Origin: an uncultured bacterium
Lineage (GTDB): Bacteria > Planctomycetota > DG-23 > CBDVDV01
Direction: 5' to 3'
DNA length: 64,000 bases
Assembly (NCBI GenBank): GCA_965372835.1
Contig: CBDVDV010000001.1
Location: forward strand, 4,593 to 68,592
Both the position numbers and the translations under genes were made by a program. Position 1 is the first letter of the stretch, and the number at the start of each line of letters is the position of its first letter. A model generated the notes under the pieces. It had not been told where the DNA came from. It searched no databases and saw only the letters and a program-made list of their open reading frames with translations. Positions 28,083-59,386 of this stretch are shown piece by piece.

Positions 28083-28083
28083 G

Positions 28084-29892: not shown

Positions 29893-29950
29893 CATGCGCG
29901 TGCTTTGGAGGAGGAGCCTTTCAACCCGCCGCACGGCGGGGAGGCGCGAG

Positions 29951-34601: not shown

Positions 34602-34649
34602 GGGTTGCCATGGTGTCCGGATGGGTCCAGACAGAGAAAGGAGAAGGTC

Positions 34650-35141
34650 ATGGACAGGATACCGGGGTGGGTCCAGGTGCTTGTCCTGGTGGTCATCATC
34701 GCCGGCACAGCGGTCTTTATCTACAAGTGGGCCACCAAGGATCCGTGGGACGCACGGGACAGACAGAAAAGAGAATGGGAGCAACGGCAGGCCGCCGAGT
34801 TCATCAAACCACTCAAGGAAAAGGGCGAACAACGGATCGGCACGTACCTGGTCAAGGCCCGCCACGTCGAAGGGCTGGAGTTCGCCGACGTCACCATCCA
34901 ACGGAAGAGCGGCGACACCGTGACCCAAGAGATCAAGGCCGATCGCATGACGGTCGACATCGGCAACGATGAGACCTGCCGGGCTCGGCTGTCGGGTGTC
35001 ACCATCACCGAGTACGACGAAGAAGGGGCCGGTTCCACCGAGGCCACGGCCAGCGAGACGATATTCTTCACCAACAGCATGCGCGGCCCGGTGGGCATCA
35101 TGGGGCCAGACTGGGCGGCGAGGGGTGACCCCGGAGGGTGA
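34650..35141 (+). CDS. Hypothetical membrane-anchored protein
   Basis: N-terminal TM WVQVLVLVVIIAGTAVFIY then a soluble domain. No family recognised. Confidence 0.5.
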   Translation: MDRIPGWVQVLVLVVIIAGTAVFIYKWATKDPWDARDRQKREWEQRQAAEFIKPLKEKGEQRIGTYLVKARHVEGLEFADVTIQRKSGDTVTQEIKADRMTVDIGNDETCRARLSGVTITEYDEEGAGSTEATASETIFFTNSMRGPVGIMGPDWAARGDPGG

Positions 35142-35328
35142 CGTGCTGCGTTCCGGGGACGTCAATGTCCCGCGGGGCGTGCAAGGGCGACAGGCGCGTT
35201 TCCGTCGATAACGAAGACACGCGCACCCAGAGGTCTTCGTGCGCCCCAATCAGGCAGGAGCCAACCTGATCGTGGCCGGGGACCCGGGGGGCCGGTCGCC
35301 ACCGGCTTCCGAGGAAAGGAGAAAGGCG

Positions 35329-36483
35329 ATGGCTCGGGGGATTCGCATCGGCCTGGTGGGTTACAAGTTTATGGGGAAAGCCCACTCCAACGCCTACCTC
35401 AACGTGGCCCGCTTTTTCGACTTGCCCAGGCCACCGGTTATGAAAGCCATCTGCGGTCGTTCCGAGGCCGCGGTGCGGGCCGTCGCCCGGCGCTGGGGGT
35501 GGGAGTCCGTCGAGACCGATTACCGTAAACTCGTCGAGCGCGACGACATCGACCTCATCGACATCGCCACCCCCAACAACACCCACGCGAAGATTGCGAT
35601 CGCCGCGGCCAAGGCCGGCAAGCACCTGGTCTCAGAAAAGCCACTGGCCATGAACGTGGCCGAGGCCAAGAAGATGCTCCAGGCGGCGAGAAGGGCCCGG
35701 GTCAAGCACATGGTCTGGTTCAACTACCGCCGGGTCCCCGCCATCGCCCTGGCCAGGAAACTCATCCAGCAAGGCGAGTTGGGTCGCATCTTCCACGTCC
35801 GAGTCGTGTACCTTCAGGACTGGATCGTTGACCCCAAGTTCCCGCTGGTCTGGCGCCTGCGGAAGCCCATTGCCGGCTCCGGTGCGCACGGCGACCTCAA
35901 CGCCCACATCATCGACCTGGCTCGCTACCTGGTGGGCGAGTTTGCCTCGGTGGTGGGGATGAGCGAGACCTTCATCAAGGAGCGGCCGCTGGAGGCCGAC
36001 TCTACCGGGCTCAGCGCCCGGGGGCGCAAGAAAAAGGGCAGGGTCACCGTCGATGACGCGATGCTCTTCCTGGCTCGTTTCCGCAGCGGAGCCATCGGCT
36101 CCTTCGAGGCTACCCGCTTTGCCACCGGCCGAAAGAACGGCGAGCGCATCGAGATCAACGGTGAAAAGGGCTCGCTGGCCTTCAACTTCGAACGGATGAA
36201 CGAACTGGAGGTTTACTCCGCCAAGGACCCGGCCGACCGACAGGGCTTCAAGACCATTCTCGCCACCGAGCCGGTACATCCCTACATCAGCGCCTGGTGG
36301 CCACCCGGCCACATCATCGGCTACGAGCACACCTTCATCAACCAGGCCGCCGACCTGCTGACGGGCATCGCCAAGAACAAGCCCCTCTCGCCTGACTTCG
36401 AGGACGGGCTGCGCTGCCAGCAGGTGCTGGACGCCGTGCTCCAATCGTGCAAGACGGGCCGCTGGGTGAGAATTCCCAAGTAG
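35329..36483 (+). CDS. Gfo/Idh/MocA-family NAD(P)-dependent oxidoreductase
   Basis: Rossmann N-terminus IGLVGYKFMGKAHSNAY, EKP motif. Strong RBS AGGAAAGGAGAAAGG before ATG 35329. Confidence 0.85.
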   Translation: MARGIRIGLVGYKFMGKAHSNAYLNVARFFDLPRPPVMKAICGRSEAAVRAVARRWGWESVETDYRKLVERDDIDLIDIATPNNTHAKIAIAAAKAGKHLVSEKPLAMNVAEAKKMLQAARRARVKHMVWFNYRRVPAIALARKLIQQGELGRIFHVRVVYLQDWIVDPKFPLVWRLRKPIAGSGAHGDLNAHIIDLARYLVGEFASVVGMSETFIKERPLEADSTGLSARGRKKKGRVTVDDAMLFLARFRSGAIGSFEATRFATGRKNGERIEINGEKGSLAFNFERMNELEVYSAKDPADRQGFKTILATEPVHPYISAWWPPGHIIGYEHTFINQAADLLTGIAKNKPLSPDFEDGLRCQQVLDAVLQSCKTGRWVRIPK

Positions 36484-36618
36484 CCGAGAGAAGCGCTCGG
36501 ACCACGTCGCTCCGTTGGTTCTGACCGGGCGGGTCGGGAGCGAAGTCCGCGCGCGGGTGCGCTTTCGCCTCAGCCCACAGCGCCGAGCGGCCGACCCACG
36601 GTTCGACAAGCTCACCGT

Positions 36619-36640
36619 GCCCTGAGCCTGTCGAAGGGCA
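36619..36640 (+). promoter_or_regulatory. Leader motif GCCCTGAGCCTGTCGAAGGGCA immediately upstream of serpin RBS
   Basis: Near-identical to the metG leader motif. A degenerate third copy (GCTCACCGTCCCGAGCAACGTCGAAGGACAG) lies at 59910-59940. Confidence 0.5.
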
Positions 36641-36654
36641 AGGAGGAATGGGAT

Positions 36655-37878
36655 ATGAGCAGGCGGGACCGCGCCTTGACGGTGGTGATGTTGTTGAGCG
36701 GGCTCCTCGTCTGGGGAGCCACCGAGGCCCTCTCCGCACCCCAGGACGCCGATGCAGGGGCGCTTGTCAGGGGGAACAACACCTTTGCCCTCAACCTCTA
36801 CGGAGAGTTGAAAGAGCAGGAAGGCAACCTGTTCTTCTCTCCCTTCAGCATCTCGGCGGCTCTGGCCATGACCTACGGCGGGGCGCGGGGGAATACCGCA
36901 GCGCAGATGGAGCAAGTGCTGTATTTCGAGGTGACGGCGGAGCGTCTGCACCAAACCTTTGCCCAGCTACTGGAGCAGCTGAATGCTCGAGGCAAGAAGG
37001 GGGGCTATCAACTCAGCGTGGCCAACGCCTTGTGGGGCCAGCAGGGCGTCGGCTTCCTCAAGAAGTTTCTCGACCTCACCGAGAAGCACTACGGCGCCGG
37101 GCTTCAGCAGGTGGACTTCGCCGCTGCCACTGAGGCTGCTCGCCAGACCATCAACGCCTGGGTTGAAAAGGAGACCCAGGGCAAGATCAAAGACCTCATT
37201 CAGCCGGGCGTCCTGAACGCCTTGACCAAGTTGGTGCTGACTAACGCCATCTACTTCAAGGGTACCTGGGCCGAGCAGTTCGACAGGAAGGCGACGAGAG
37301 ACACACCCTTTACCCTGGCCACCAGGCGGCAGGTCAAAGTCCCGATGATGCACAAGACCGAAAACTTCGGCTACACCGAGGCAGAGGGTTTCCAGGCCCT
37401 CGAACTTCCCTACGCAGGCGATGACCTCTCCATGGTCATCTTCCTCCCCCGCGAGGTCGATGGCTTGGCGGCTCTGGAGAAGGAACTTTCCCTGGAGAAC
37501 CTGGAGAGTTGGCTGGGCGGGCTGCGCCGACAGACGGTACAGGTGTCGCTGCCCAGGTTCACCATGACCTCAGAGTTTGGACTCCAGGACGTGCTCAAGT
37601 CGCTGGGCATGACCGACGCCTTCTCAGGCGCCGCCGACTTCTCGGGCATGACCGGCAGGAGAGACCTGTTCATCTCGGCTGTCATTCACAAGGCCTTCGT
37701 GGACGTCAACGAAGAGGGTACGGAGGCGGCAGCGGCCACCGCGGTGGTGATGATGACGAGCGCAGCGCCGAGGCCCCCCGTGGTCTTCCGGGCCGACCAC
37801 CCCTTCCTCTTCCTCATCCGTGACAACCGGTCAGGCAGCATCCTCTTCATCGGCCGACTCGTGAACCCGAAAGCATAG
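36655..37878 (+). CDS. Serpin (serine protease inhibitor), secreted
   Basis: Signal peptide. NTFALNLY, FSPFSISAALAMTYGGARGNTA. C-terminal serpin signature and reactive-centre-loop region (EEGTEAAAATAVVMMTSAAP...FRADHPFLFLIRD). Confidence 0.9.
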   Translation: MSRRDRALTVVMLLSGLLVWGATEALSAPQDADAGALVRGNNTFALNLYGELKEQEGNLFFSPFSISAALAMTYGGARGNTAAQMEQVLYFEVTAERLHQTFAQLLEQLNARGKKGGYQLSVANALWGQQGVGFLKKFLDLTEKHYGAGLQQVDFAAATEAARQTINAWVEKETQGKIKDLIQPGVLNALTKLVLTNAIYFKGTWAEQFDRKATRDTPFTLATRRQVKVPMMHKTENFGYTEAEGFQALELPYAGDDLSMVIFLPREVDGLAALEKELSLENLESWLGGLRRQTVQVSLPRFTMTSEFGLQDVLKSLGMTDAFSGAADFSGMTGRRDLFISAVIHKAFVDVNEEGTEAAAATAVVMMTSAAPRPPVVFRADHPFLFLIRDNRSGSILFIGRLVNPKA

Positions 37879-37879
37879 A

Positions 37880-39298
37880 GTGACTGCGCCACACGACGCA
37901 TGTGCCACGGCCGGACTTGACCGGCCGTGCAGGGGGATGCTGTCAGCAGGGAATGGGGTTCCTGTGACTTCCGCAAAGGTGCTCGACTCAGGCACCGTTT
38001 CAGTTGCCTGTGTGCACTTTCTTGTGGACATAGGAGACTGGGCACGTGCGTGTATCAATGAGTTCGCCTCCACCCCGCCGACCGACGGCCACGACCAGGC
38101 GACCTTCACCACCGCCTGGGCTCCCTATATCAGGGCCCGAGGTGACCAGCGCGCTCTCGACTTCATGACCGACCTCAGGGATACGATCAAGGCGAACTTT
38201 GTTGAGAAGGGCATGTGGAAGCATGGCTACTGGACGTGCGCGGACGTGCACCATGGCACGGAACACTTCGAACTTTTCCTGGGCACGCTCTGGCGGCTCA
38301 AGCCCGAGGATACGGAGACCGTTCGGCAGTTGGTGGACGCTGCCGAGCACATGGGAAACTGGGTGTCTGAGATTCCCGCCTGGTTCGACCGGGACACGGG
38401 GCTTTTCCGTAGTCTGCATTTCGGGACCGACGGGGTAAAGCCTATGGCAGAGGAGACCTTCAACCTCCCCGACCACCTTCGCTGCGTAAACGTGTGCCTG
38501 CTGGCCTCGGCCATGACGGATGACCAGCGCTACCTGGACCTGGCCCGCTTCTATGGCGGACGGTGGGCGGATGCCATTCTCGCCGGCGAAGAACTCCCCG
38601 TTGGCCTCAACGAAGAAGGGGCCATGTACTTCCTCAGAAAGCCCGCGGAGGGGGCTTACCGAGCCTTCGCTGGTCAGATCGGTAAACTTCGCTCTGCCGT
38701 TGACCGGGCCGAGAACTTCCTGGCCTCAGGCGCCGTCAACGCATTTCTGGAACTGTGGCGGCTGACCGGTGAGGAGCGCTTCCGCAGCGCGGCCGAGAAA
38801 CTCCTGGACGTCATCGTCACGCAACTCACCGACCCGGACGCCGGTGCCGCGGCGGCCGCCGTCCGCACCTACCGTCAGATGACGGGAGGGACCCGCTACG
38901 ATTCCGTGGTGCTCGATGCGGTCGGACCCCTCGACCTATCCTCTTTTTCTCAACTCTCAATAGAGCCAGAGGTCAAGCGCAACGGCCGGCCCTCAGGCAT
39001 CGGCAAGAGGCAGGATATGCCGATCTGGTACGAGGACGCCACCCCCCGACGGCACAACCCCATCCTGCTGGCCGTGGCCGCTGAGATCACACAGGACCAA
39101 GACCTGGCCACACGGGCTGTAGACATGGCCCGGGTCTACTTCCACCTGGCCAGGAAGGTCTATCCCCACGGGCGGGAGCACGGCTGCTCGGCCCGCTCGG
39201 TGAGCGCCATCGCCCGCGGTCACGGCAGAGACAACAACGCCGGGGTCGTCACCGCAGTCCTGGCCCCAATACTGGAAGCCTTCGAGGCCTGGATGTAG
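37880..39298 (+). CDS. Hypothetical protein translationally coupled to the serpin gene (472 aa as drawn; start uncertain)
   Basis: Stop of serpin at 37878 and first in-frame start at 37880. Protein-like composition from about residue 40 onward. Possibly an (alpha/alpha)-type enzyme, but no family could be assigned by eye. Confidence 0.55.
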   Translation: MTAPHDACATAGLDRPCRGMLSAGNGVPVTSAKVLDSGTVSVACVHFLVDIGDWARACINEFASTPPTDGHDQATFTTAWAPYIRARGDQRALDFMTDLRDTIKANFVEKGMWKHGYWTCADVHHGTEHFELFLGTLWRLKPEDTETVRQLVDAAEHMGNWVSEIPAWFDRDTGLFRSLHFGTDGVKPMAEETFNLPDHLRCVNVCLLASAMTDDQRYLDLARFYGGRWADAILAGEELPVGLNEEGAMYFLRKPAEGAYRAFAGQIGKLRSAVDRAENFLASGAVNAFLELWRLTGEERFRSAAEKLLDVIVTQLTDPDAGAAAAAVRTYRQMTGGTRYDSVVLDAVGPLDLSSFSQLSIEPEVKRNGRPSGIGKRQDMPIWYEDATPRRHNPILLAVAAEITQDQDLATRAVDMARVYFHLARKVYPHGREHGCSARSVSAIARGHGRDNNAGVVTAVLAPILEAFEAWM

Positions 39299-47123: not shown

Positions 47124-47198
47124 GCGGGCGTAGTTCAGTGGTAGAACACCAGCTTCCCAAGCTGGGCGTCGTGGGTTCGAATCCCATCGCCCGCTCCA
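47124..47198 (+). tRNA. tRNA-Gly (anticodon CCC), CCA encoded
   Basis: Acceptor GCGGGCG/CGCCCGC, D-loop AGTTCAGTGGTAGAAC, anticodon loop CTTCCCAAG, T-loop GGTTCGAATCC. Confidence 0.9.
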
Positions 47199-48296: not shown

Positions 48297-48803
48297 GTGA
48301 GGAACCTCTGGGCGCCGTGGCGGATGGAGTATGTCGGCGACCTCACCGAGGACGGCTGCTTCCTGTGCCGCGCCTGGGAAAGCACGGAGGACGACGTCAA
48401 CCTGGTGGTCTGGCGGGGCCAGCGGACGTTTGTCATCTTCAACCGCTTCCCCTATTCCAACGGCCACCTCATGGTGGCCACGGCCGAACACGGGCGCATG
48501 CTGAGCGACCTCAGCGATGAGGAACTGGTGGAACTGATGCGGGCGACGGCACGCATGCAGCGACTGCTGGAACGGGTGGTGCGCGCGCACGGTTTCAACA
48601 TCGGGCTGAACCTGGGTCGGTCGGCCGGTGCCGGCCTCACTGACCACCTCCACCTCCACATCGTGCCTCGCTGGGAGGGAGATACCAACTTCATGCCCGT
48701 CCTGGCTGACGTGAAGGTCATTCCCCAGGGACTCCAGGAACTGTACCGGGGGCTGAAGTCAGCGCTCGTACGAGCCGCACCTCCGCAGGATGAGGACCGA
48801 TGA
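48297..48803 (+). CDS. HIT-family nucleotide hydrolase/transferase
   Basis: Histidine triad HLHLHIVPR. Confidence 0.8.
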   Translation: MRNLWAPWRMEYVGDLTEDGCFLCRAWESTEDDVNLVVWRGQRTFVIFNRFPYSNGHLMVATAEHGRMLSDLSDEELVELMRATARMQRLLERVVRAHGFNIGLNLGRSAGAGLTDHLHLHIVPRWEGDTNFMPVLADVKVIPQGLQELYRGLKSALVRAAPPQDEDR

Positions 48804-50008
48804 ACGCTCACTCGCGAAGGCCGGGGGCCAGGCCCCAAACCGGGCAAGCAGGCATCCTGCTGAGTCGGCAGGCCCTGGAGGAGCGCGAGCAACGGGACTT
48901 GGCTGCCTACGCCGCCCACAGCGCCAACAGCCGGGGACGCCGATACCCCGAGGCCGAGCACCCCTATCGCACCTGCTACCAGCGCGACCGGGACCGCATC
49001 ATCCACTCCACCGCCTTCCGCCGACTGGAGTACAAGACCCAGGTCTTCGTCAACCACGAGGGCGACTACTACCGCACCCGCCTCACTCACACCCTGGAGG
49101 TCAGCCAGATCGCCCGCACCATGGCCCGGGCCCTGAACCTCAATGAGGACCTCGTCGAGGCCATCGCCCTGGCCCACGACCTGGGTCACACCCCCTTCGG
49201 CCACTCCGGCGAGGACGCCCTGCGGGAACTGATGCGGGAGCACGGCGGCTTCGAACACAACCTGCACGGCCTCCGGGTAGTGGACAAGTTGGAGCACCGT
49301 TACGTCCGGTTCTCCGGTCTGAACCTTACCCGCGAGGTCCGTGAGGGCATGGCCAAACACCGCACTCGCTACGACCATCCACCCCCGAGTGAGTTCGACG
49401 ACCGCCTCCAGACCCCCCTTGAGGCCCAGGTGGTGGAGGCGGCCGACACCATCGCCTACGACAGCCACGACCTGGACGACGCCTTGAAGGCCGGCCTGGT
49501 GCAGGAGGAGGACCTGGCCGGTGTGGCCCTCTGGGAACTGGCGGCGGAGCGGGCCGAGGGCGAGTTCGGCCCCCTGGAGCCGGAGAGTCGGCGGGTGCAG
49601 GTGGTCCGGTTCCTCATCAATCAGGAGGCGACGGCACTGCTGGAGCAGACCTGCGCCAACCTGGAAGCGGCCGGGGTGGCCTCACCCGAGGAGGTGCGTC
49701 AGGCCGCGCGGCCGCTGGTCGAGTTTGACCGAGAGATGAGGGAGCTGCAGGCGGGACTCCAGGAGTTCCTCATGGAGCGGGTATACGGGCACTACCGGGT
49801 GATGCGGATGGCCACGAAGGCCCGTCGATTCATCAAGGAGATTTTCACCGCCTACATCCAGAGCCCGGAGCAGTTGTCGCCGTCGGCGCTGCGGCACCGG
49901 CAAGAGGACGGACTGCACCGCGTGGTCTGTGACTACGTCGCCGGGATGACGGACCGGTACGCTCAGGACGAACACCTGAAACTGTTTGCTCCCTTCGAAC
50001 GGGTGTGA
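48800..50008 (+). CDS. dgt: dGTP triphosphohydrolase-like HD-domain protein
   Basis: QRDRDRIIHSTAFRRLEYKTQVF and HD motif RLTHTLEVSQIAR...LAHDLGHTPFGH. Confidence 0.88.
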   Translation: MNAHSRRPGARPQTGQAGILLSRQALEEREQRDLAAYAAHSANSRGRRYPEAEHPYRTCYQRDRDRIIHSTAFRRLEYKTQVFVNHEGDYYRTRLTHTLEVSQIARTMARALNLNEDLVEAIALAHDLGHTPFGHSGEDALRELMREHGGFEHNLHGLRVVDKLEHRYVRFSGLNLTREVREGMAKHRTRYDHPPPSEFDDRLQTPLEAQVVEAADTIAYDSHDLDDALKAGLVQEEDLAGVALWELAAERAEGEFGPLEPESRRVQVVRFLINQEATALLEQTCANLEAAGVASPEEVRQAARPLVEFDREMRELQAGLQEFLMERVYGHYRVMRMATKARRFIKEIFTAYIQSPEQLSPSALRHRQEDGLHRVVCDYVAGMTDRYAQDEHLKLFAPFERV

Positions 50009-50116
50009 GCGGTAGGATGTGAGTGTCATGGCCGGCCCGCCGGGGGCTGGCGAACGCGTCGGTGAGACGCGAAGTCATTGGGGGACCAGGTTCATTGGCC
50101 AATTAGGGGGAAAGTA

Positions 50117-51196
50117 ATGAGGTACTGGCTTTGGATCTTCAGAGGGCTCTTTGTCCTGGCCGCTCTGGGGGCTGGTTTGGCTATCAGTTCTATCCTTAGC
50201 GACGGCGGGGCCTTCGGCGACAATCCGGAGACGGTTGACTGGTGGGCAACCCTCACGGTGGTCGCTTGTGTGGCGGCGGCGGGGCTGACCGTCCTGCTGG
50301 ACGTTATCTTCTCCCGGCGACCGGTGCAGAACTTCACCGCCGTCTTCTTCGGCCTCCTGGTGGGGGTGGTCATGGCTTCCCTGTTCCGGTTTGTGCTCCA
50401 GGCCACCCCCATGCCGCCGTACTTCGTGGACGCGTGCTACTTGCTGATGCTCACTATCTTCTGCTACCTGGGCGTCGCGGTCATCATGCAGACCAAGGAC
50501 GACTTCCGCTTCATCATCCCCTACGTGGAGTTCAGCCGCGAGACCCGCGGCCGCCGACCCATCGTCCTGGACACCAGCGTCATCATCGACGGACGGGTGG
50601 CCGACGTGTCCGAGACCCGTTTCCTGGACGCCCCCCTGGTCATCCCCCGCTTTGTCCTGGGGGAACTCCAGAACATCGCCGACTCCGATGACAAACTCCG
50701 TCGAAAACGAGGCCGCCGCGGCCTGGACATGCTCAACCGTCTGCGCCGAAACAAAAGGCTCGAGGTCATCATCCACGACACCACCCTGGAGCAAGGTGAA
50801 ATGGTGGACGGCAAACTCATCAACCTGGCCAAGTCGCTGGACGCCCGGGTGATGACCAACGACTTCAACCTCAACAAGGTCGCCCAACTCCAGAACGTGG
50901 ACGTCATCAACATCAACGACCTGGCCAACGCCCTGAAGACCGTGGTCATGGCCGGTGAGCAGATTTCCGTCGGTATCACCAAGCCGGGCGAGGAGCCGGG
51001 GCAGGGCGTGGGTTACCTGGACGACGGCACCATGGTGGTGGTGGAGCAGGGCCGCGACCGCATCGGCCAGGAGGTCACCATCACCGTGAGCAGCGTGCTC
51101 CAGACCTCCGCCGGCCGAATGATCTTCGGCCGGCCCGTCGAGGGTCAGCCCGCGGCCGCCGCTTCGGACGCCCCTGCCGGGGGAACAGACGGGTGA
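50117..51196 (+). CDS. yacL: PIN/TRAM-domain protein YacL-like with N-terminal TM helices
   Basis: PIN core IVLDTSVIIDGR...VIPRFVLGELQNIADS...VMTNDFNLNKVA and C-terminal TRAM (GQEVTITVSSVLQTSAGRMIFGR). Conserved yacL-ispD order. Confidence 0.8.
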   Translation: MRYWLWIFRGLFVLAALGAGLAISSILSDGGAFGDNPETVDWWATLTVVACVAAAGLTVLLDVIFSRRPVQNFTAVFFGLLVGVVMASLFRFVLQATPMPPYFVDACYLLMLTIFCYLGVAVIMQTKDDFRFIIPYVEFSRETRGRRPIVLDTSVIIDGRVADVSETRFLDAPLVIPRFVLGELQNIADSDDKLRRKRGRRGLDMLNRLRRNKRLEVIIHDTTLEQGEMVDGKLINLAKSLDARVMTNDFNLNKVAQLQNVDVININDLANALKTVVMAGEQISVGITKPGEEPGQGVGYLDDGTMVVVEQGRDRIGQEVTITVSSVLQTSAGRMIFGRPVEGQPAAAASDAPAGGTDG

Positions 51197-51939
51197 GGGG
51201 CGACGTAGCCGCGGTGGTGGTCGCTGGTGGTCGGGGACGCCGACTGGGGCGGCCCGAACCCAAAGCCTTCGTTCCCCTGGCCGGACGCCCGATGCTGGCC
51301 TATTCCCTGGAGGCCCTCCGTGGCGTCGATGGGGTAGGGGAGTTGGTGGTGGTCCTGCCCGAGGGCCAGGAGCGCGCCCTCGTCGAAACCTGGGCTGAAC
51401 TCGAAAGCCGGTACCAAGTCAGCGCCAGCGTCGCCGGCGGCGAGCACCGTTGGCAGTCGGTTGCCGCGGGGCTGGAGGCCCTGACGGGAGATAGTGAATT
51501 CGTGCTTATCCACGACGCCGCCCGTCCCCTGGTGACACCCGAACTGATAGAGGCTGTGGTCCGCCGGGCCGCTGACGTGGGAGCGGCCATCGCCGCCCAG
51601 CCCCTGACCGACACACTGAAGGAAACCGACGAGCACCTCCTCATTCAGCGAACCCTGGACCGTTCCCGGTACTGGCGGGCCGAGACCCCGCAGGTCTTCC
51701 GTCGCGCACTTATCCTAAAGGCCTATCAGCGAGCCGGTGACCTCCAGTCCTGCGGATCCGCCCATACGGGCGTCCCCGCCGGTCGGCGGGTCGGGCCTAC
51801 CGACGACGCCCAACTGGTGGAGGCCCTCGGGGCTCCCGTGGCCGTGGTCCCCAGCCCGAGTCCCAACCCGAAGATCACCACCCCAGAGGACCTCCTGCTG
51901 GCCGAGCAACTGCTCAGCAGGCGCTCGTTGGGAACCTGA
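51193..51939 (+). CDS. ispD: 2-C-methyl-D-erythritol 4-phosphate cytidylyltransferase
   Basis: AVVVAGGRGRRLG...PKAF N-terminus and IHDAARP motif. Confidence 0.9.
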   Translation: MRGDVAAVVVAGGRGRRLGRPEPKAFVPLAGRPMLAYSLEALRGVDGVGELVVVLPEGQERALVETWAELESRYQVSASVAGGEHRWQSVAAGLEALTGDSEFVLIHDAARPLVTPELIEAVVRRAADVGAAIAAQPLTDTLKETDEHLLIQRTLDRSRYWRAETPQVFRRALILKAYQRAGDLQSCGSAHTGVPAGRRVGPTDDAQLVEALGAPVAVVPSPSPNPKITTPEDLLLAEQLLSRRSLGT

Positions 51940-52031
51940 AAGAGAATCCCCTCCTTCGGTGCGGCCTTGCCTGCAGGCCTGTGGCACCGTATACTGAAGA
52001 GCGGGAGCAGTGGTAGCGGAGGCGGCCCCTC

Positions 52032-52457
52032 ATGTGGTACTACATCATCATCGGCATCCTGGCGGCGGCGGTAGTGGTGTCGTTCGTCCGTTGGTTCTTC
52101 ATCCGGCCTCGGAGGATGAAACTTCCCGAGGGGTCCATCGAGGAACTCACTCGCTTCGCCGCGGAGTTTCGCCGGGCCGCTGACTACATGAGCGAACTCT
52201 CCAAGACCCTCGAACTGCGCAGCCTCCTCGAGTGGCAGCGGAAGAACGAGGAAATCCTCAAGACCCTCCGCCGGATGAATAAACTCCTCGTGGAACTCAA
52301 CGAGTTCTTCGAGATCGAAGCCACCCAACTCACCCCCGACGACACCGACGAGCAGGCCCCCGTCCCTTCGGGCGCAGCCTCGACCGCACACCGTAGCAGC
52401 CGGGAAACAGAGCGCCGCGGCGCTGACAGCTCTGCAACCGACTCCAATTCGACATAG
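52032..52457 (+). CDS. Hypothetical single-TM protein with cytoplasmic coiled coil
   Basis: MWYYIIIGILAAAVVVSFV TM, then a Glu/Leu/Arg-rich helix. First of a run of small membrane protein genes. Confidence 0.5.
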   Translation: MWYYIIIGILAAAVVVSFVRWFFIRPRRMKLPEGSIEELTRFAAEFRRAADYMSELSKTLELRSLLEWQRKNEEILKTLRRMNKLLVELNEFFEIEATQLTPDDTDEQAPVPSGAASTAHRSSRETERRGADSSATDSNST

Positions 52458-52512
52458 TCAACTTCACTTCGCTGACGATTCAGAGCCTTAGCCGCCCGGA
52501 AAGGGAAGGGCG

Positions 52513-53037
52513 ATGAGTGGCGGGCGAAGGAAAGACACGTTCCCGGCCGACGAGAGCCCCGAGCAGCGACATGAGATACTGATACTGGCCAGTGCGCTGT
52601 GCTTCGCCATTGGTGCCTTGTGCTTTCTGTTCCGGGTCTACATCACCTCAGACTACGCCGCGGCTCGTCGGTGGCCCTACCAGCAGCACCTCCTGGTGGT
52701 AATGTTGGTGGCGGGCGCTCTGGCCATCGTCTTGCGCGTCTGGGCCGGTGGCTGGTCGTGGCGGGAGTCGGTTTTGCGGGAACTCTTGAAGCACCCTCTC
52801 GTCATCGCCGGCCTCATCGGAGGAGCGGTCGCCTTGCTGAGCCTTGTTGCGACAGTGCTGAAGATCGAGCTAGCGTGGTACCGGTATGTGTACGGCTCTG
52901 TGCCCGTCGCCACAATTCTCTTCGACTTGCTTATTCCTCTGGGCCTGCTGCTGACGGTCGTCGCAATCATCCTGCTGGCAAAGCACATCCGTCGAAAGCG
53001 CCAGCAGAAGGGAAACGAACCTTCTCATCAATCCTAA
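52513..53037 (+). CDS. Hypothetical 4-TM membrane protein (tandem duplication of a 2-TM unit)
   Basis: Two hydrophobic hairpins. RBS AAGGGAAGGG before ATG 52513. Confidence 0.5.
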   Translation: MSGGRRKDTFPADESPEQRHEILILASALCFAIGALCFLFRVYITSDYAAARRWPYQQHLLVVMLVAGALAIVLRVWAGGWSWRESVLRELLKHPLVIAGLIGGAVALLSLVATVLKIELAWYRYVYGSVPVATILFDLLIPLGLLLTVVAIILLAKHIRRKRQQKGNEPSHQS

Positions 53038-53060
53038 CACGATGGGGGAGGGGGGTGCCG

Positions 53061-53366
53061 ATGGGCCCAACCGAGCCCGAGTTTGAGCGGCGGCGCTTCC
53101 GCATGGAGTTCAGTGCCTGGTTGTGCTTTGTCCTTGGGACAGGTCTCTTCTGGCACTGGCTGGAGCGCGAGTTAGACTTGGAACGGACCGAAGACGTCGC
53201 CATCGGGCTGCTTGTGGTGGCGGCAGTGCTCGCTGGCCTCGCCGTGGTCCTGATGGTCCTGGCCCTCCGGCCTTATCAGAGAATCGGGGAACCACCAGCC
53301 TCTGCGCCTCCTGACGACGACAGCATGCAGGAGTTCGAAGACAATCTCCTCGCAGACACCGAGTAG
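53061..53366 (+). CDS. Small 2-TM membrane protein (paralog of 53383-53735)
   Basis: Preceded by GGGGAGGGGGGTGCCG, identical to the leader of the next gene. Topology and loop motif W-LE-ELD-LER-TEDV are shared with the next gene. Confidence 0.5.
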   Translation: MGPTEPEFERRRFRMEFSAWLCFVLGTGLFWHWLERELDLERTEDVAIGLLVVAAVLAGLAVVLMVLALRPYQRIGEPPASAPPDDDSMQEFEDNLLADTE

Positions 53367-53382
53367 GGGAGGGGGGTGCCGA

Positions 53383-53735
53383 TGAAGTCTGGTATTTCGA
53401 GTGTGTCGGCACTCTTGCGCAAATCGGCATACGTCTTTCTGCTGGTTGGCTTTGCCTGCTTCATTCTCTATGTCGCTGCGGTGCAGTGGAACTTGGATGA
53501 GCTGCCCCGACCCATCGAGAAGGTGGCCTTGACGCTCGCCATAGTCGCCTTCGTTCTGGGTTTGGTCTGCATTGCAGGGGCGGGGCCGGAGGCATTCGGC
53601 GCCCGATATTCGCCGGAACGCCGACGGCAGTACAACCGCAGCGCCTTGGTTTCCTTGTCGGTTACGGCGCTGGTCGGCGGCGTGGCGGTCGTGCTGCTTC
53701 GCTCCTTGGCAGAGGCCCATAGCGCCAACAACTAA
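53383..53735 (+). CDS. Small 2-TM membrane protein (paralog of 53061-53366)
   Basis: Identical 19-nt leader/RBS block. Loop motif VQWNLDELPRPIEKV. Confidence 0.5.
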
Positions 53736-53760
53736 ACAGGTCGCCCGAGAAGCAGGCACT

Positions 53761-53778
53761 TGTGAAATCTTTCACAAA
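53761..53778. promoter_or_regulatory. CRP/FNR-family binding site candidate TTGTGAAATCTTTCACAA (TGTGA-N6-TCACA)
   Basis: Perfect 8+8 inverted repeat matching the CRP half-site consensus, AT-rich in a GC-rich genome, about 120 nt upstream of ORF 53898. Confidence 0.45.
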
Positions 53779-53897
53779 CTTGCCTGCACACACTTCACCC
53801 CGTAGGCTCCACACCATCTGACTCCAGGTGATCGCCGAAGACACCCTCGCCACGAAGAGGGAGGCCCCGGCAGCGACACGTTCCCGTAGGACTTGCT

Positions 53898-55094
53898 ATG
53901 CCCACGCCGAAAAGCCAGCCGCAAAAGAAATCCAGAGGCCGGAATACCCTCGCTGCAGTCCTCCTGGTGACCTTGGCGGGGAACATTGCGCTGCTTGCGG
54001 CGTGGGGGTGGACGCACCCGGACGAGGGGGTCGACGCCTTTCTCGGAGTGGATGGCAACAAGTACCGTGTCGTTGCTCGGAACCCGTTGGGCCGGTCGAT
54101 GGACTTCTGGGACTCACCTTATCGCTATCAGCGGGTGCTGGTGCCTACGGCATGGTGGCTGCTCAGCGCAGGGCAGAGCGCGGTTATTCCGTACGTCTCG
54201 GTGATCTTGAACGTGCTGGCCGTGTGCGCAGGTACGGTCCTGGTGGGAGTGGTTTGTCTGCGGGGAGGAGTCCCCGCATGGTGGGCCCTTGTTTACGGCT
54301 TCGCTCCCGGCTTTCAGCGGGCGGTGACCGCGGGACACCTGGAACCGGTGGCCAACCTCCTCATCCTTCTGGCCCTGGTGGCGTGGCTTCAGCGGCGAAG
54401 GCGCACGCTCCTGGTGCTTCTGGCTCTGCTGCCTCTGGTCAAGGAGGTGTATCTGTTCTTCACCTTCGCTTTCTTCGTGAGTGAAGTTGCAGCCAAGAGG
54501 CGGCCGACCGGGCGGTGGCTCCTCCTTCTGGTGCCCTTTGTGGTCTGGCAGGTTTACATCCGATGTCGGTTCGGGGCTTTCGGGGCCATGTACCATCTCT
54601 TTGACGTAAGGCCAAGTTGGCGGATGGTGGTCGAGGCCGTCAAGTGGAACCTGGTGGTCCAGCGTCCCGGAGCGCGGCTGGTGGTGCTGGCGCAAGTGTG
54701 GTCGGTGGGGCTTGTGGCGGCGGTGATTGCGGTTGTGGTACGCCGACTGACTGCCGCCTACCGGAAGCGGAGCATTCGATTCGGCTTCCCAGAGGTTTCG
54801 CTGTTTGTGTATACGCTCCTACTCATGGCACTCATGCACAAGGTCGCCTACCAGTTGGAGGCGTTCTTCAGGATCGCATCGACGGCGCTGCCCATGGTCT
54901 TCGTGGCCGGGCTCTGTCCCTACCCGAAAGGGACGTGGCAAGACCGGCCGCCGACGGAGCAACGTGACAGGACGCTGGTCGGGTTGGTGCTCATGTTCTC
55001 GGCGCTCCTGAGCGTGCTGGGGATTCCGATTCTGTTTCTCTACCTGGGGTCACTGCCGCCTTTGCTGTTTCAGGGGACCCCGCTGCATCCCTGA
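53898..55094 (+). CDS. Hypothetical polytopic membrane protein (398 aa), possibly a GT-C-like glycosyltransferase/polymerase
   Basis: About 10 predicted TM helices with Arg-rich loops. No specific family recognisable. Confidence 0.55.
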   Translation: MPTPKSQPQKKSRGRNTLAAVLLVTLAGNIALLAAWGWTHPDEGVDAFLGVDGNKYRVVARNPLGRSMDFWDSPYRYQRVLVPTAWWLLSAGQSAVIPYVSVILNVLAVCAGTVLVGVVCLRGGVPAWWALVYGFAPGFQRAVTAGHLEPVANLLILLALVAWLQRRRRTLLVLLALLPLVKEVYLFFTFAFFVSEVAAKRRPTGRWLLLLVPFVVWQVYIRCRFGAFGAMYHLFDVRPSWRMVVEAVKWNLVVQRPGARLVVLAQVWSVGLVAAVIAVVVRRLTAAYRKRSIRFGFPEVSLFVYTLLLMALMHKVAYQLEAFFRIASTALPMVFVAGLCPYPKGTWQDRPPTEQRDRTLVGLVLMFSALLSVLGIPILFLYLGSLPPLLFQGTPLHP

Positions 55095-55177
55095 GGATTC
55101 CAAGCGGCCTTGTGGCCCTTCGGCTCAGGTGTGCGCAATGCAACATAAGATATGTTATCGGACATCCAACCTATCAA

Positions 55178-56308
55178 TCACATCCGTCCTGCGGGGGGCC
55201 GGCCTGCCGAGCGAGACGCGGAAGCGACGCTCGCGACCCGTGCACCGGAGGCGGCCGCTGGTTGAGGAGCGGCCAAGGCCTGCTGAGTGAGTTTGAGGGC
55301 CCCGGAGACGATGCGCAGTCGGACCCCGTAGTTGGTGTGGTAGCCCTTCTGGCGCGTCGTGTACTGTCGATACACGACCACTTCCACATCGTCCTCGATA
55401 CTGTACTCCACGACTTCCTGGCCCACCCGGCTGACACTGCCCAGGCGCTGGCGTAGGCCGAAGCCCTGCCGCGCTAACAGCACACAGTAGAGGTAGGGAT
55501 ACGCCCGGCCCACGCGGTTGATGGACAGTTGGATCTGGAGGCCAAGGAACTCCTCCGGGGCCTCGTCGAAACGCACCTGGAGCCGCGCGTCCCGGGGCAG
55601 CTGGCGCTCCTGCTCGGGCTTGGCGAGTCCCCTCTTCTTCTTGGATGAGGCCTGGCGGGTGACGCTGACCTCCATCTGGGGGATGAGGGTAAGGCCCGAT
55701 GGAGAAAGTCCGCGGATGCACTGCTCGGCTTCCTGGAGGCACTTGACCTTGATCACCAGTTCCTCGGGTTTCCAGGTTGTCCGCAAGCCGCTCAGCCAGA
55801 TGGGCACGGACAGAGCCGCTGCATCCAGCAGCCACATCTTCTGAGCCGTGTTGGCTCTCCCCTCGGCAAAGTCAGCAAACACCCAGAGGGGCCCGAGCGG
55901 CCCAAACCGGCCCATGTCCCCCAGCCACGCAGCGACCAACAGGACCACGTAGACCGCTGCCAGGAGACTGAGAAGTCCCGGCCAGGAAGCCAGGTTGAAG
56001 GGGCTGCGGGCCCATCGGCGGGACCGCTCGGCCGTATCCAGCACTCCTTGAAACTCGTCCAGCGTAACCTGCTCCCACCTGCGCTTGCCCCGCAAACGAG
56101 GCTTGTTCCGAATCCCCCGGCTGGCTCCCAAGAGCGCCCCGGCCAGCACCAGCACCCAGCCCACCCACACCGAGATCAGCACCTGGAGCATCAAACCGAG
56201 GACCAGACAGGCGGTGATGACGGCCAGCCTCACCCGGTAGTCGAGGCCGCCGATGAGAAAGCGCACCTCGTACTTGTCTTCACGTTCTGGTTGGTAGAAC
56301 CTGACCAT
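55178..56308 (-). CDS. Hypothetical membrane protein, third gene of the Cys-repeat / radical SAM operon
   Basis: N-terminal TM helices (LAVITACLVLGLMLQVLISVWVGWVLVLAGALLG). Start overlaps the radical SAM stop by 29 nt. Large C-terminal soluble part. Confidence 0.65.
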   Translation of the reverse strand: MVRFYQPEREDKYEVRFLIGGLDYRVRLAVITACLVLGLMLQVLISVWVGWVLVLAGALLGASRGIRNKPRLRGKRRWEQVTLDEFQGVLDTAERSRRWARSPFNLASWPGLLSLLAAVYVVLLVAAWLGDMGRFGPLGPLWVFADFAEGRANTAQKMWLLDAAALSVPIWLSGLRTTWKPEELVIKVKCLQEAEQCIRGLSPSGLTLIPQMEVSVTRQASSKKKRGLAKPEQERQLPRDARLQVRFDEAPEEFLGLQIQLSINRVGRAYPYLYCVLLARQGFGLRQRLGSVSRVGQEVVEYSIEDDVEVVVYRQYTTRQKGYHTNYGVRLRIVSGALKLTQQALAAPQPAAASGARVASVASASRSAGRPPAGRM

Positions 56309-57686
56309 GCGCCTTCACTTCGAGCAGTTCACCGTACCCCACGATCTTCCAGTAGATGGGACAGGCGCCATCGCACATCTCGAATAACTCGCACGATTGG
56401 CAGACTTCGTGAGCGTACCGTTTCTCCTGGTAAAACCGGGCCCGCTCACCTCCCCAGACCTCTTCGAAGGGCTGCGTGAGCAGGTTCCCCACCGGCTGGG
56501 TCAGGCTGGAGCAGGGAAGGACGTCGCCGTTGGGGGCCACCGAGAGGAGGCCGTCGCACGCTGCGCACCCCTTGTTCCCCAGGCCTTCGGCCACGGGGTT
56601 GAAGATGCAGTAGGGCGTCGGCGAGTACCAGAGGAACTGCACCCCAACCCTTCGTGCCGCGCGCTTCACTTCCCGGACCACCTCCCCTATCTCGCTGTAA
56701 CTGACCCAGAGTTCCTCGGCTCCCGGCCCTGCTGAGCCACAGGGGATGACCATGTTCATCGAGAAGCGGTCCAGCCCCAACCCCTTCATCAGCGCGGGCA
56801 GTTCCACCAACTCGTCCAGGTTAGCCCTTGTGGCAGTCGTGTTGGTGTGGACGGCGACGCCGGCCCGGCGAAGGTGCTTGACCCCCCTAAGGCTGGCCTC
56901 GAAGGAACCCGGCACCTGAGTAAGACCGTCGTGCGTCGCCGCGGTCACCCCTTCCAGGCTGACCTGGGCACTGTCCAGGCCTGCCCCGCGCAGGCCCTGA
57001 GCCGCCTGAGCGTCGATTAGGGTCCCGTTGGTGATGAGGTTGACTCGCAGCCCCGCCGCCTTGGCGTGGCCGACCAGTTCGACGATGTCGTCGCGCAGCA
57101 TGGGCTCCCCGCCGGTGAAACTGGTGGAGGGTACCTGGGCTTGGTGACGGATGATGTCGAAGATGCGTTTCACCTGGGCCGTGGACATCTCCTCGGTCTC
57201 ATCGTCCTGATGACAACTGCAGGAGGCGTAGCAGAAGAGGCAGGAGAGGTTGCAGCGATAGGTCACAGCCACCTCGCTCAGGACGGGAAGCAGGTTGTAG
57301 GGTCGGCGGAAGGGCACCGTCTCCACGGCCCGCCTCCCCTCCCCTTCTCCCAGACAGCCCACCAGGAGCGCCCGCAGGTCGCAGAAGAAGTGGTGGACGT
57401 CGGCGCACCTGGCCGGGTCGTCGGCGTGAGGCCCGAGGACGTCGAAGACGCTTTCGCCGTCGAGCATCCGCCCCAGGAGTTCGAGGCCGGTACGGTTCAG
57501 TTTGTAGGCCTGGTTGGGAAGGAGAATGAGCAGTTCGTCGGCCTGGCGCACGGCGACGTAAGAGCGGATCTGCCTCACGAACTCATCCGTCCAGCCGATG
57601 TCCACGTGCTCGGCGGCGGGGCTGGGCGTGGAGACCGACGACAGCGGACACCCGTCCCTCACCCCTGATTCCGGTCGCCCGCCCAT
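56280..57686 (-). CDS. Radical SAM enzyme with N-terminal PqqD-like RRE and C-terminal SPASM domain (peptide/protein-modifying maturase)
   Basis: CNLSCLFCY (Cx3Cx2C), GGEP glycine-rich SAM motif, and a SPASM Cys cluster (CGSAG...CIFNP...GCAACDG...LPC...CQSCELFEMCDGAC). N-terminal LLILLPNQAYKLNRTGLELLGRMLDGESV is PqqD/RRE-like. ATG at 57686 overlaps the upstream stop as TGATG; the track's longer ORF to 57770 overlaps the repeat region. Confidence 0.85.
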   Translation of the reverse strand: MGGRPESGVRDGCPLSSVSTPSPAAEHVDIGWTDEFVRQIRSYVAVRQADELLILLPNQAYKLNRTGLELLGRMLDGESVFDVLGPHADDPARCADVHHFFCDLRALLVGCLGEGEGRRAVETVPFRRPYNLLPVLSEVAVTYRCNLSCLFCYASCSCHQDDETEEMSTAQVKRIFDIIRHQAQVPSTSFTGGEPMLRDDIVELVGHAKAAGLRVNLITNGTLIDAQAAQGLRGAGLDSAQVSLEGVTAATHDGLTQVPGSFEASLRGVKHLRRAGVAVHTNTTATRANLDELVELPALMKGLGLDRFSMNMVIPCGSAGPGAEELWVSYSEIGEVVREVKRAARRVGVQFLWYSPTPYCIFNPVAEGLGNKGCAACDGLLSVAPNGDVLPCSSLTQPVGNLLTQPFEEVWGGERARFYQEKRYAHEVCQSCELFEMCDGACPIYWKIVGYGELLEVKAHGQVLPTRT

Positions 57687-59386
57687 CAGTGCGCTCCCCC
57701 GCTCACGCACGCCCCGTGGCAGGCCGAGTGACACGCTGAGTGGCACGCCGAGTGACAGGCACTGTGACACGCTGAGTGACAGGCGTCGTGGCAGGCGGTG
57801 TGGACATAGCAGGCGCTGTGGCAGGCATCGGATTTGATGAAAGCAGCGTAGTTGGTGGCCGCTGCGGGCTGGTGTTCCTCGACGGAGCGTCGCATGCGAT
57901 CGATGCGGTCTCCCCGGTCGTAGTCGTCGTTGTAGTAGTGGTGATAGTAGTACCCGTAGCGGCGGGGATAGCGCTCACCCCAGGCGTACTCATGCTCCTC
58001 GTCCATGTTCTCGGGCGTGGTGGAGCGGGCCAGGGCGGCGAAGAGCCCGCTGTAGTACTTCTTGGTGGCGGGCAGGTCGGAGTCCCAGCACTTGCGCTGG
58101 ACGCCGTCGGATAGTTCGGCGTAGAGCCCGTTGAGCCGCCTCTGGGAGAGGGTGCCGTCGGCCTGGACGGTGTCGAGGAAGAGTTTCTCGTAGGAGTTTC
58201 GGGGTTGGTAGCGAAGGGAGGTGCGCTCGATGGTGAGGGGATCCTCGCTACGGATGTAGAGGGCCCCCCGCTGCTCCAGGTCGGCGCAGATGAGGCAGGT
58301 GATGGTGCTCAAGGGGATGTCCAAGAGCAGCCCCGCCTCGATGACGTTCAGGCGCGCGATCTTCCCCTTCTTGCGGAAGGTGGCCACCTTGATTTTGGGT
58401 GGCACCCAGATGTTGCTGTCCCAGCGTACCTCCTCCAGCGCTTCGCCCGCTTGCTGCAAAGACCCGTGCTTGAGACCCATGGCCACCACGGCAGCCACCA
58501 CCAGCACCACCACCGCCAGCACGGCCGCCAAAGGAATCCCCTTGCCCAGTTTCTTGACCGCCCCGGGGATTCGGCCTTTCTCGATTCTCGCCCCTACACC
58601 GACCGCTTCCTCGGCGCGGGTGCTGCCGAGCGTGGGGAAATACCTTGCGGCGATGTACTGCTGGACGAGGAAGTGGAACTCCTTCGGTGCCGACTTCTTG
58701 TGCAAGAGGATGGTGAGCCAGTTCTTGCCCTGGTAGGGCGTGGCCCGGTAGTCGATCTTGTACTGCTCGTTCATGAACTTCTCAGTGCGGAAGGTGACCT
58801 CCTCGAGGAACTCGGGTGCGACCTTGAGCACGTTCCCTTCGGCCGCCACGCGTTCGGGCGGCACCTCGATGGGGTAGTGGACGTAGACGGTGTAGTGCTC
58901 CAGCGCTTCCGCCCGTTGTACGGGTGCCCAACCCAGGACGACCAGTTGACCCAGGCCCGGGGCCTCCGTCAGTCCCAGGTTCTTACTGGCCACCAGGTCG
59001 GCGGCATAGTGGACGATGTAGGTGGTTTCCCCTGGCCCGAAGGCCTGTTTTCCGGCCAGCACTACGTCGTACTTACGGTCCGAGACGTGGGCGATGGAGA
59101 GGGGGTAACGGCGCCCACCGGCTTGGGCGTGGGAGGTCTCGAAGTTGAAGACCGGGGTCTCCTGCATCCCTTCCAGGTAGAAGCCGTGCATCTTGCCGCT
59201 GGTGACGGTCCAGCGCAATTTGTAGACGATGTCGGCCTTGCCGTCCTGGCGCAGCGACAGATCCACCTCCACCCAATGCAGTTTCGCGGAGACGGCTGCC
59301 TGGGCCGTCGGCGCCAGGACCCAGAGGAGCGCCACGACCAGGGCCGGCAGTAGTAGTCGACGGACTTCAAGCGCTCGCCTGAACAC
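57686..59386 (-). CDS. Signal-peptide/TM protein (DUF2207-like architecture) ending in a tandem (Ala-Cys-His-Ser)n repeat; candidate substrate of the adjacent radical SAM enzyme
   Basis: Signal peptide MFRRALEVRRLLLPALVVALLWVLAPTAQA. TM helix IPLAAVLAVVVLVVAAVVAMGL. Tyr/His-rich segment. C-terminal SDACHSACYVHTACHDACHSACHSACHSACHSACHSACHGACVSGGAH. Confidence 0.8.
   Translation of the reverse strand: MFRRALEVRRLLLPALVVALLWVLAPTAQAAVSAKLHWVEVDLSLRQDGKADIVYKLRWTVTSGKMHGFYLEGMQETPVFNFETSHAQAGGRRYPLSIAHVSDRKYDVVLAGKQAFGPGETTYIVHYAADLVASKNLGLTEAPGLGQLVVLGWAPVQRAEALEHYTVYVHYPIEVPPERVAAEGNVLKVAPEFLEEVTFRTEKFMNEQYKIDYRATPYQGKNWLTILLHKKSAPKEFHFLVQQYIAARYFPTLGSTRAEEAVGVGARIEKGRIPGAVKKLGKGIPLAAVLAVVVLVVAAVVAMGLKHGSLQQAGEALEEVRWDSNIWVPPKIKVATFRKKGKIARLNVIEAGLLLDIPLSTITCLICADLEQRGALYIRSEDPLTIERTSLRYQPRNSYEKLFLDTVQADGTLSQRRLNGLYAELSDGVQRKCWDSDLPATKKYYSGLFAALARSTTPENMDEEHEYAWGERYPRRYGYYYHHYYNDDYDRGDRIDRMRRSVEEHQPAAATNYAAFIKSDACHSACYVHTACHDACHSACHSACHSACHSACHSACHGACVSGGAH
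57700..57832 (-). repeat. Imperfect tandem 12-nt repeats encoding (ACHS)n
   Basis: Plus-strand units such as gagtgacaggca / ctgtgacacgct / gagtgacaggcg / tcgtggcaggcg. Synonymous variation between units keeps the peptide repeat exact. Confidence 0.8.

Follow-up and report, generated by a model that had tools for sequence, protein, structure and literature searches.

We describe a locus within a 64,000-nt stretch of contig CBDVDV010000001.1 (assembly GCA_965372835.1, from an uncultured member of the Planctomycetota), the whole of which was analysed and is referred to below as the window. At positions 52032–55094 it carries four small genes, designated A, B, C and D, followed by a palindrome and by gene E, which encodes a polytopic membrane protein. 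We read this as a chromosomal envelope-glycosylation locus of a sediment bacterium, built in two layers—a conserved core that includes A and E, and a variable cassette within it—and hold this reading with moderate confidence. In the cassette, C is evidently a truncated member, with two transmembrane segments (TMs), of a family that comprises B and a gene of the relatives, C'; it was placed at the start of D, and the 19-nt leader of D, consisting of a Shine–Dalgarno (SD) sequence and the ATG, was thereby duplicated. One gene has thus been dropped precisely onto the start codon of another with the ribosome-binding site copied, and a repeated leader need not mean a gene duplication. The features of the region are as follows.

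48800–50008, + strand: dGTPase-like HD protein
50078–51196, + strand: membrane PIN/TRAM protein
51193–51939, + strand: IspD, followed by A
52032–52457, + strand: A, 141 aa, 1 TM, an orphan family and conserved partner of E
52513–53037, + strand: B, 174 aa, 4-TM orphan with both termini inside (N-in/C-in), the intact member of the variable set
53045–53063, + strand: leader copy 1, SD sequence GGAGG and ATG of C, the original leader of the B–D junction
53061–53366, + strand: C, 101 aa, about 2 TMs and an acidic tail, a truncated paralog of the B/C' family
53064–53384 (equivalently 53045–53365), + strand: 321-bp insertion relative to other loci, carrying C and the second leader copy
53366–53384, + strand: leader copy 2, SD sequence and ATG of D, overlapping the stop codon of C
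53382–53735, + strand: D, 117 aa, 3-TM remnant of a 4-TM protein of 152–162 aa
53760–53777: palindrome TTGTGAAATCTTTCACAA, candidate CRP/FNR-type operator
53780–53808, + strand: candidate promoter of E, TTGCCT-17-TAGGCT, read from the sequence, 3 nt past the palindrome
53898–55094, + strand: E, 398 aa, a membrane glycosyltransferase of predicted GT-C fold
55142–55156: second, AT-rich inverted repeat AACATAAGATATGTT, downstream of E in the 83-nt gap between E and the convergent gene F

The locus was compared with 27 others (L001–L027) drawn from metagenome-assembled genomes (MAGs) and metagenomes, mostly of sediments. The 19-mer GGGGAGGGGGGTGCCGATG occurs in exactly two copies in the window, 53045–53063 and 53366–53384, which lie 321 nt apart. 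An earlier note on this DNA had correctly reported the identical block ahead of C and D, and had taken it to mean that the two genes are products of a duplication. In L011, L012, L008 and L006, the stop codon of B is followed by ...catcaatcctgacacgatgggggaggggggtgccgATGAAG, which is the start of D, and the leader is present in a single copy; alignment of the window with these loci gives one clean gap of 321 columns in four of four. The 321-bp insert encodes C, sits exactly at the start codon of D, and is flanked by the 19-mer. Since the relatives join B directly to D with one leader, the repeat is the junction of the C insertion: the duplication of the leader is real and does include the SD sequence and ATG, but it is a scar of that insertion and not a mark of C/D gene duplication. 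L013 holds the same leader duplication, there 22 nt long.

Protein comparisons place the relatives of C elsewhere than in D. C and D, proposed earlier to be paralogs with a common loop motif, match by BLASTP only out of register (E = 0.014) and score 3% in hhalign; the relatives of C are B and C' instead. Across its first 42 nt, SD sequence included, C aligns with the leader and gene start of C', and the C protein has 34% identity over 86 aa to C' of L006, matches B in register (BLASTP E = 0.001), and is half as long as C'. In hhalign, the two-TM N-terminal half of B gives 96.6% (E = 5.5e-10) against C/C', and the test of separate halves gives 97%. By hydropathy C has one strong TM and a weaker first stretch at residues 17–34, the latter read from the sequence and below threshold. 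D has no detectable relationship to B or to C' (hhalign 12.6% and 3%, respectively), and the suggestion that B is a fused tandem of a 2-TM unit is contradicted by an hhalign probability of 0.3% between its N- and C-terminal halves. By these alignments, the 2-TM and 3-TM proteins are derived from predicted 4-TM proteins, and not vice versa. C has a single non-self homolog, an ORF of equal length and 74% identity in L013/L014.

Gene D is damaged. Hydropathy shows three hydrophobic segments, and the gene has an in-frame deletion of 117 bp (39 codons), with its junction within 53661–53678, by which TM3 and TM4 are fused. The microhomology GT(T/G)ACGGCG is found at both ends of the deletion, and on this evidence D is a protein that has lost one TM by microhomology-mediated in-frame deletion. 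In L013 the deleted segment is retained, but D has a nonsense codon (TGG>TAG). The ratio of nonsynonymous to synonymous substitution rates (dN/dS) of D is 0.66–0.79 in the lineage of the window and L013, as against 0.32–0.42 for intact D, and from these features D looks to be decaying.

The genes B, C and D are confined to one narrow uncultured clade, and the content of the A–E interval varies among loci. It is empty in L002, L003, L004, L021, L024, L026 and L027, and in L001 it contains an unrelated 265-aa protein with 6 TMs. The order C' (151–152 aa)–B (166 aa)–D (156–162 aa) is found in L008/L009 and L006/L010, B (174 aa)–D in L011+L005 and in L012, and B–C–D in the window and in L013/L014, which are nearly identical to it. 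When intact, C', B and D each have approximately 150–175 aa, with four hydropathy peaks and an N-in/C-in topology by the positive-inside rule; their lysine plus arginine counts are 10–13 in the odd loops versus 3–5 in the even loops, a heuristic measure and not the output of a trained predictor. In L012 (GCA_030628485.1, positions 1–140) the ATG of B is replaced by CTG and the gene is called from a GTG further downstream (142 aa); B may have a shortened N-terminus there, or may use another start.

Divergence within the cassette is unevenly distributed. Between the window and L013 the flanks have about 1 difference per 100 nt, and 53000–53800 has 5–24 differences per 100 nt. The synonymous divergence (dS) is 0.012–0.038 for the dGTPase, PIN/TRAM, IspD, A, B and E genes, and reaches 0.138 for C and 0.215 for D. 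Values of this size are beyond the reach of relaxed selection, and the C–D alleles must therefore be older than their flanks. D is mosaic, with 95–97% identity to the L012 type over the first 120 nt but, in columns 241–300, 89–92% to the L006 type versus 77–82% to the L012 type. Hypermutation of a hypervariable segment by a diversity-generating retroelement was considered, and the mosaic pattern of D points to recombination instead. No further copies of B, C or D were found in the window. The aligned loci show a cassette altered by insertion, by deletion and truncation, and by recombination of divergent alleles with one another, and they provide a clean and comparatively dated example of small membrane-protein genes being inserted, truncated and lost.

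All four of the small ORFs are present consecutively on the + strand, with spacers of 55, 23 and 15 nt for A/B, B/C and C/D, and they are genuine membrane-protein genes. Their GC content by codon position is coding-like throughout (third-position GC, or GC3, of 0.74–0.75 for C and D), they have already been called as unnamed genes on a public contig of 76.9 kb, and the dN/dS values of B (0.22–0.56) and of intact D fall within 0.22–0.56 and hence indicate purifying selection. For C the overall dN/dS is 1.1; its TM core has a value of 0.22 from 5 substitutions only and its tails values of 1 or more, substitutions being few throughout. The TM counts of 1, 4, 2 and 2 given earlier for A to D hold for A and B and approximately for C, but not for D, with its three segments; similarly, the earlier end of D at 53735 stands, but its ATG is at 53382 and not 53383. 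An antisense ORF that runs across C and D (53172–53759, − strand, 195 aa) was rejected as a real gene, with a GC3 of 0.66 versus 0.74–0.75 for C and D and an open frame of only 109–123 aa in the relatives. A simple GC3-based gene picker preferred this ORF over C and D, an artefact of the high GC content.

Gene A had been grouped with the small genes of the cassette, but its conservation sets it apart. Every relative with an E of 52% identity or more keeps the order IspD–A–E, which is seen in L002/L003/L021, L024, L026 and L027. A is 73–79% identical where E is only 52–63% identical, and is thus the better conserved of the two; on this pattern A is part of the conserved core, outside the variable set. 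The protein is predicted to be anchored in the membrane by its N-terminus and to continue as a coiled coil in the cytoplasm with a disordered tail; hydropathy gives one TM, and all of its lysines and arginines come after it. Neither Pfam nor NCBIfam has a family for it. More distant members of the A family (P0022–P0038) carry a C-terminal motif, DF..E.EKF.....I...EI...DWDELL.RL, which the A of L023 (32–511) retains; the window A (52032–52457) and those of its closest relatives, L013 and L011, have a low-complexity tail in its place.

A candidate sigma-70-like promoter, TTGCCT-17-TATACT, lies upstream of A at 51967–51995 on the + strand and is the sole promoter-like match in 51850–54000. L008, L011 and L013 share the leader around it (..gtatactgaagagcgggagcag..) ahead of their own A genes. 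No + strand terminator-like site is present in the A–D spacers, the sole + strand match being inside C (53127–53143), and the candidate promoter probably drives A–B–C–D.

The region upstream of E contains a second conserved element. The perfect palindrome TTGTGAAATCTTTCACAA that the earlier note described as CRP-like is present, and its TGTGA-N6-TCACA core (53761–53776) is the sole such site in the window. One such site in 64 kb is unremarkable by itself, about one being expected at up to 1 mismatch; the significance of the palindrome comes from its conservation in relatives and not from its single occurrence. Each of the 17 loci covering the sequence ahead of E has the pattern GTGAA-N4-TTCAC exactly once, regardless of which gene comes before it, and in a variant from L025 the spacer is shorter by 1 nt. 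Among 12 distinct sequences the site has 1.5 bits per column versus 0.5–0.76 in its flanks, and positions outside the search pattern are conserved too (GTGAAA..TTTCACAAA). Three nucleotides further on is TTGCCT-17-TAGGCT, which we infer to be the promoter of E; the form TTG(C/G)(C/T)T-17-TA(G/A/C)(G/A/C)CT is conserved in the nearer clade and in L025, with TTGG(C/T)T-17-TA(G/A/C)(G/A/C)CT kept in L001, L005, L006, L007, L008, L012, L013 and L025. By eye, neither this promoter nor that of A has a sigma-54 match of the GG-N10-GC type. A sigma-54 gene is located at 24724–26280.

The best reading of the palindrome is as a candidate DNA operator of the CRP type. Sites of the form TGTGA-N6-TCACA are bound by CRP of E. 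coli and by CRP homologues such as GlxR, and the resemblance lies in the perfect consensus, the orthologous position in 17 loci, and the placement just upstream of conserved −35 and −10 elements. The conserved core here differs from such operators in being GTGAAA-N2-TTTCAC(AAA), and the outer T of the left arm is lost in more distant relatives. A regulator of the CRP/FNR family, encoded elsewhere, would bind the palindrome beside the −35 element and so set the transcription of E.

Alternatively, the palindrome might act in RNA, as a terminator or attenuator hairpin ending the A–B–C–D transcript. It lies 25 nt past the stop codon of D, and the RNA of the window folds there at −27.7 kcal/mol (z = −2.6) into a longer stem that is capped by the palindrome. 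The outer part of that stem (GCAGGCA/TGCCTGC) is missing in the relatives, however, and there is no U-tract and no terminator called at the palindrome. The arms are invariant, show no compensatory changes, and are extended asymmetrically on the right (TTTCACAAA), and the element keeps its place beside the E promoter even where the upstream gene differs; Rfam has no match in 51900–55300 at the gathering or E-value threshold. We regard a hairpin as very unlikely and retain the operator as the preferred reading.

The second inverted repeat, AACATAAGATATGTT, has exact copies downstream of E in L001 (3482), L005 (1748), L008 (3809), L013 (8113) and L014 (4523), and one in L023 (1181). Exact conservation thus extends to relatives with an E of only 63% identity, and chance alone would give no copy in the window. 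In L023 (561–1195), A is followed by the GTGAA-N4-TTCAC palindrome and, about 600 nt later, by AACATAAGATATGTT, and the interval holds neither E nor a convincing ORF; apparently E was lost there while both of its flanking elements were kept.

The 398-aa polytopic protein reported earlier downstream of the palindrome is E (53898–55094), and it has the features of the GT-C superfamily fold: it is polytopic, with an N-terminal 7-TM module and juxtamembrane helices, and Foldseek agrees. Residues 50–212 match positions 61–228 of the 232 in NCBIfam NF046093 (E = 1.9e-26), the 'AZOBR_p60025 family cell surface glycopolymer formation protein', and residues 85–218 give a weak match to Pfam DUF2079 (E = 0.0012). 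A literature search found no paper mentioning the AZOBR_p60025 family. PDB sequence searches with E alone and with an E profile gave no similarity to any solved structure. Its closest known counterparts are polyprenyl-phosphate-sugar glycosyltransferases of the small (~400-aa) GT-C_A type: E resembles PimE (9dm5), GPI (glycosylphosphatidylinositol) mannosyltransferase I/PIG-M (9wno) and ALG3 (9s6r) in size (383–407 aa), but has only 6–15% identity to them in structural alignments.

Two residues of E, D52 and Y56 (in VDGNKY), are invariant in 13 sequences and lie within a helix (51–61) after TM1, in the first outer loop. They have the same D-x3-Y spacing as the catalytic residues D58 and Y62 of PimE (PMC12041525), a likeness in spacing and not a superposition of residues. 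By analogy, D52 may be the catalytic base, and E would take a sugar from a polyprenyl-phosphate-sugar donor and pass it to an acceptor in the periplasm or at the cell surface.

Relatives of the locus are scarce. Among 5.8 billion proteins, 13 relatives of E are detectable, and B is represented by 5 clusters only (77–100% identity); the A family has 18 representatives only among 1.84 billion proteins. Scans of GTDB representatives gave no match with the A alignment, and with the E alignment only distant relatives, from MAGs of Dormibacterota and Ktedonobacterales and of 30–38% identity to E; no A-like gene was found beside these. A conserved unit in an uncultured lineage is made up of a putative site of the CRP type, a candidate promoter and a small glycosyltransferase of the GT-C kind, always beside the orphan, membrane-anchored coiled-coil protein A, and this unit yields testable hypotheses for an unnamed glycosyltransferase family.

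We propose, with low confidence, an accessory role for B, C' and D, as dispensable membrane proteins that would share a transcript with A and probably serve the envelope process in which E takes part. Should they modulate the glycosyltransferase, the locus would represent a variable surface-glycan module of a new kind. Several observations weigh against our reading of the locus, beginning with the fact that adjacency alone now links the cassette functionally to E. The putative operator and promoter of E separate it from the cassette, most genomes with A and E lack the cassette, and C (with its dN/dS of 1.1) and the damaged D may both be non-functional here. All of the relatives are metagenome contigs, and strain-mixed assemblies could yield some of the mosaicism. 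The structure model of E is of medium confidence (a predicted local distance difference test score, or pLDDT, of 70.8) and that of B is unusable (pLDDT 50.5, predicted template-modelling score 0.31). E scores below the curated cut-offs (92.7 versus 150 bits for NF046093 and 18.4 versus 28.2 bits for DUF2079), so that by the curators' rule it is a relative and not a member of these families. The palindrome is absent from L024, and no CRP/FNR regulator (cyclic nucleotide-binding or HTH_Crp domain) is found among the Pfam-scanned genes of the window. The centre of the palindrome (53768.5) is about 46.5 bp upstream of the start expected from the −10 element at 53803–53808, and not at −41.5 or −61.5; CRP sites are classed by position as class II (−41.5) and class I (−61.5 and similar).

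Accessory envelope proteins co-transcribed with A are ranked most likely, at low confidence, and the main rival is that C and D are decaying, pseudogene-like remnants in a permissive A–E spacer, with only B, if anything, functional. The two closest genomes have independent disabling lesions in D, the deletion in the window and the nonsense codon in L013, and the high dN/dS values of D and C, the half-length of C relative to C', and the frequent absence of the cassette all fit this explanation. Relaxed selection alone would not produce a dS in C and D that is 5–10 times that of the flanks, though, and C has kept its length and frame at 74% identity, with a TM core that appears constrained on the strength of those 5 substitutions only. 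The D deletion is in frame, and both genes retain a perfect strong SD sequence and coding-type GC3. We judge decay of both genes unlikely, if well short of negligible. The picture that the earlier note had drawn—C and D as paralogs from a tandem duplication that took in the initiation region, B as a fused 2-TM tandem, and the whole as a holin, immunity or stress module—has in its favour the truly duplicated leader and the small, membrane-embedded nature of all the proteins, together with sub-threshold matches to PspM, AmaP, PycTM and one holin family (E = 0.004–0.07, far below the cut-offs). The only holin match is Phage_holin_3_6 for D of L008 (E = 0.021, 15 bits versus a cut-off of 28.4). 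The relatives have shown the duplication to be an insertion junction, the C/D and B-half comparisons are negative, and the acidic tail of C is unlike those of holins. Searches of Pfam, NCBIfam, PHROGs and PADLOC with A–F, C', intact D and the 265-aa protein of L001 gave no family above threshold; those of PHROGs and PADLOC, the latter for anti-phage defence, were empty, and the Pfam and NCBIfam matches of the small proteins are sub-threshold noise, the match of E to NF046093 being sub-threshold as well. No endolysin or other lysis gene, toxin gene or psp gene is adjacent, nor was a toxin gene seen nearby. A holin, immunity or defence role is without support, there is no pointer to a new mechanism, and the earlier picture taken as a whole is hardly credible.

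Two further proposals concern what the accessory proteins might do and why they vary. B, C' and D could handle lipid-linked sugars, as analogues of the GtrA and ArnE/ArnF flippases that would supply E with its polyprenyl-phosphate-sugar donor. Flippase subunits of the GtrA and SMR (small multidrug resistance) types have the same size and topology as the intact members, of 150–175 aa with 4 TMs and N-in/C-in, the GtrA and SMR (ArnE/F) families being of about 110–170 aa with four TMs and N-in/C-in. In the ArnE/ArnF–ArnT system and the three-component O-antigen modification systems (GtrA–GtrB–GtrC), small 4-TM proteins are encoded beside a GT-C transferase in surface-glycan loci that are typically variable and recombining, and the small genes here are likewise immediately upstream of a GT-C gene. 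They differ in having no homology to GtrA or SMR: no similarity to GtrA, SMR (Multi_Drug_Res) or EamA is seen in Pfam or NCBIfam even at E-values up to 1. Neither is there a GtrB-like polyprenyl-phosphate glycosyltransferase (GT2) gene near E, or among the Pfam-scanned genes of the window, and the small genes here have a promoter separate from that of E and are missing from most genomes in which E persists. We consider such a flippase role improbable. A shade less probable still is a cassette-exchange system made up of B, C' and D, in which recombination at shared SD–ATG leaders (GGGGAGG..CCGATG) would shuffle, swap and truncate orphan 4-TM proteins, the leader serving as both ribosome-binding site and recombination joint; alleles much older than the surrounding genome would then be kept by diversifying selection, for example by phages recognising the product of the adjacent GT-C enzyme.

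The locus is set, on the + strand, in a housekeeping stretch of a bacterial chromosome with 65% GC. Beside E is a convergent − strand operon (55178–59386) that comprises F, a 376-aa membrane protein without a family; a radical SAM/SPASM gene (56280–57770) that overlaps F by 29 nt, and whose best NCBIfam matches are AhbD/NirJ-like and far below the cut-offs; and a gene for a 566-aa protein without a family. The order E–F–radical SAM is kept in L005, L006, L008 and L013, and not in L001 or L007. In these last two loci a different block is directly beside E on the opposite strand (3971–9380 in L001 and 1629–5538 in L007), and in the window (32444–39298) it lies 15 kb from E, the difference in position indicating rearrangement between lineages. 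The block encodes a major facilitator superfamily (MFS) protein, dihydroorotate dehydrogenase, an unknown protein of 178 aa, an oxidoreductase of the GFO/IDH/MocA type, a bacterial serpin and a second unknown protein, of 472 aa. A second GT-C locus is present at 27700–31939, with a 730-aa protein of the PMT_2/PMT family followed by an overlapping gene for a 690-aa protein without a Pfam family. The window also contains a bacterial large-type signal recognition particle RNA at 21795–22059 (196.8 bits) and tRNA genes at 13978–14067 and 47124–47195.

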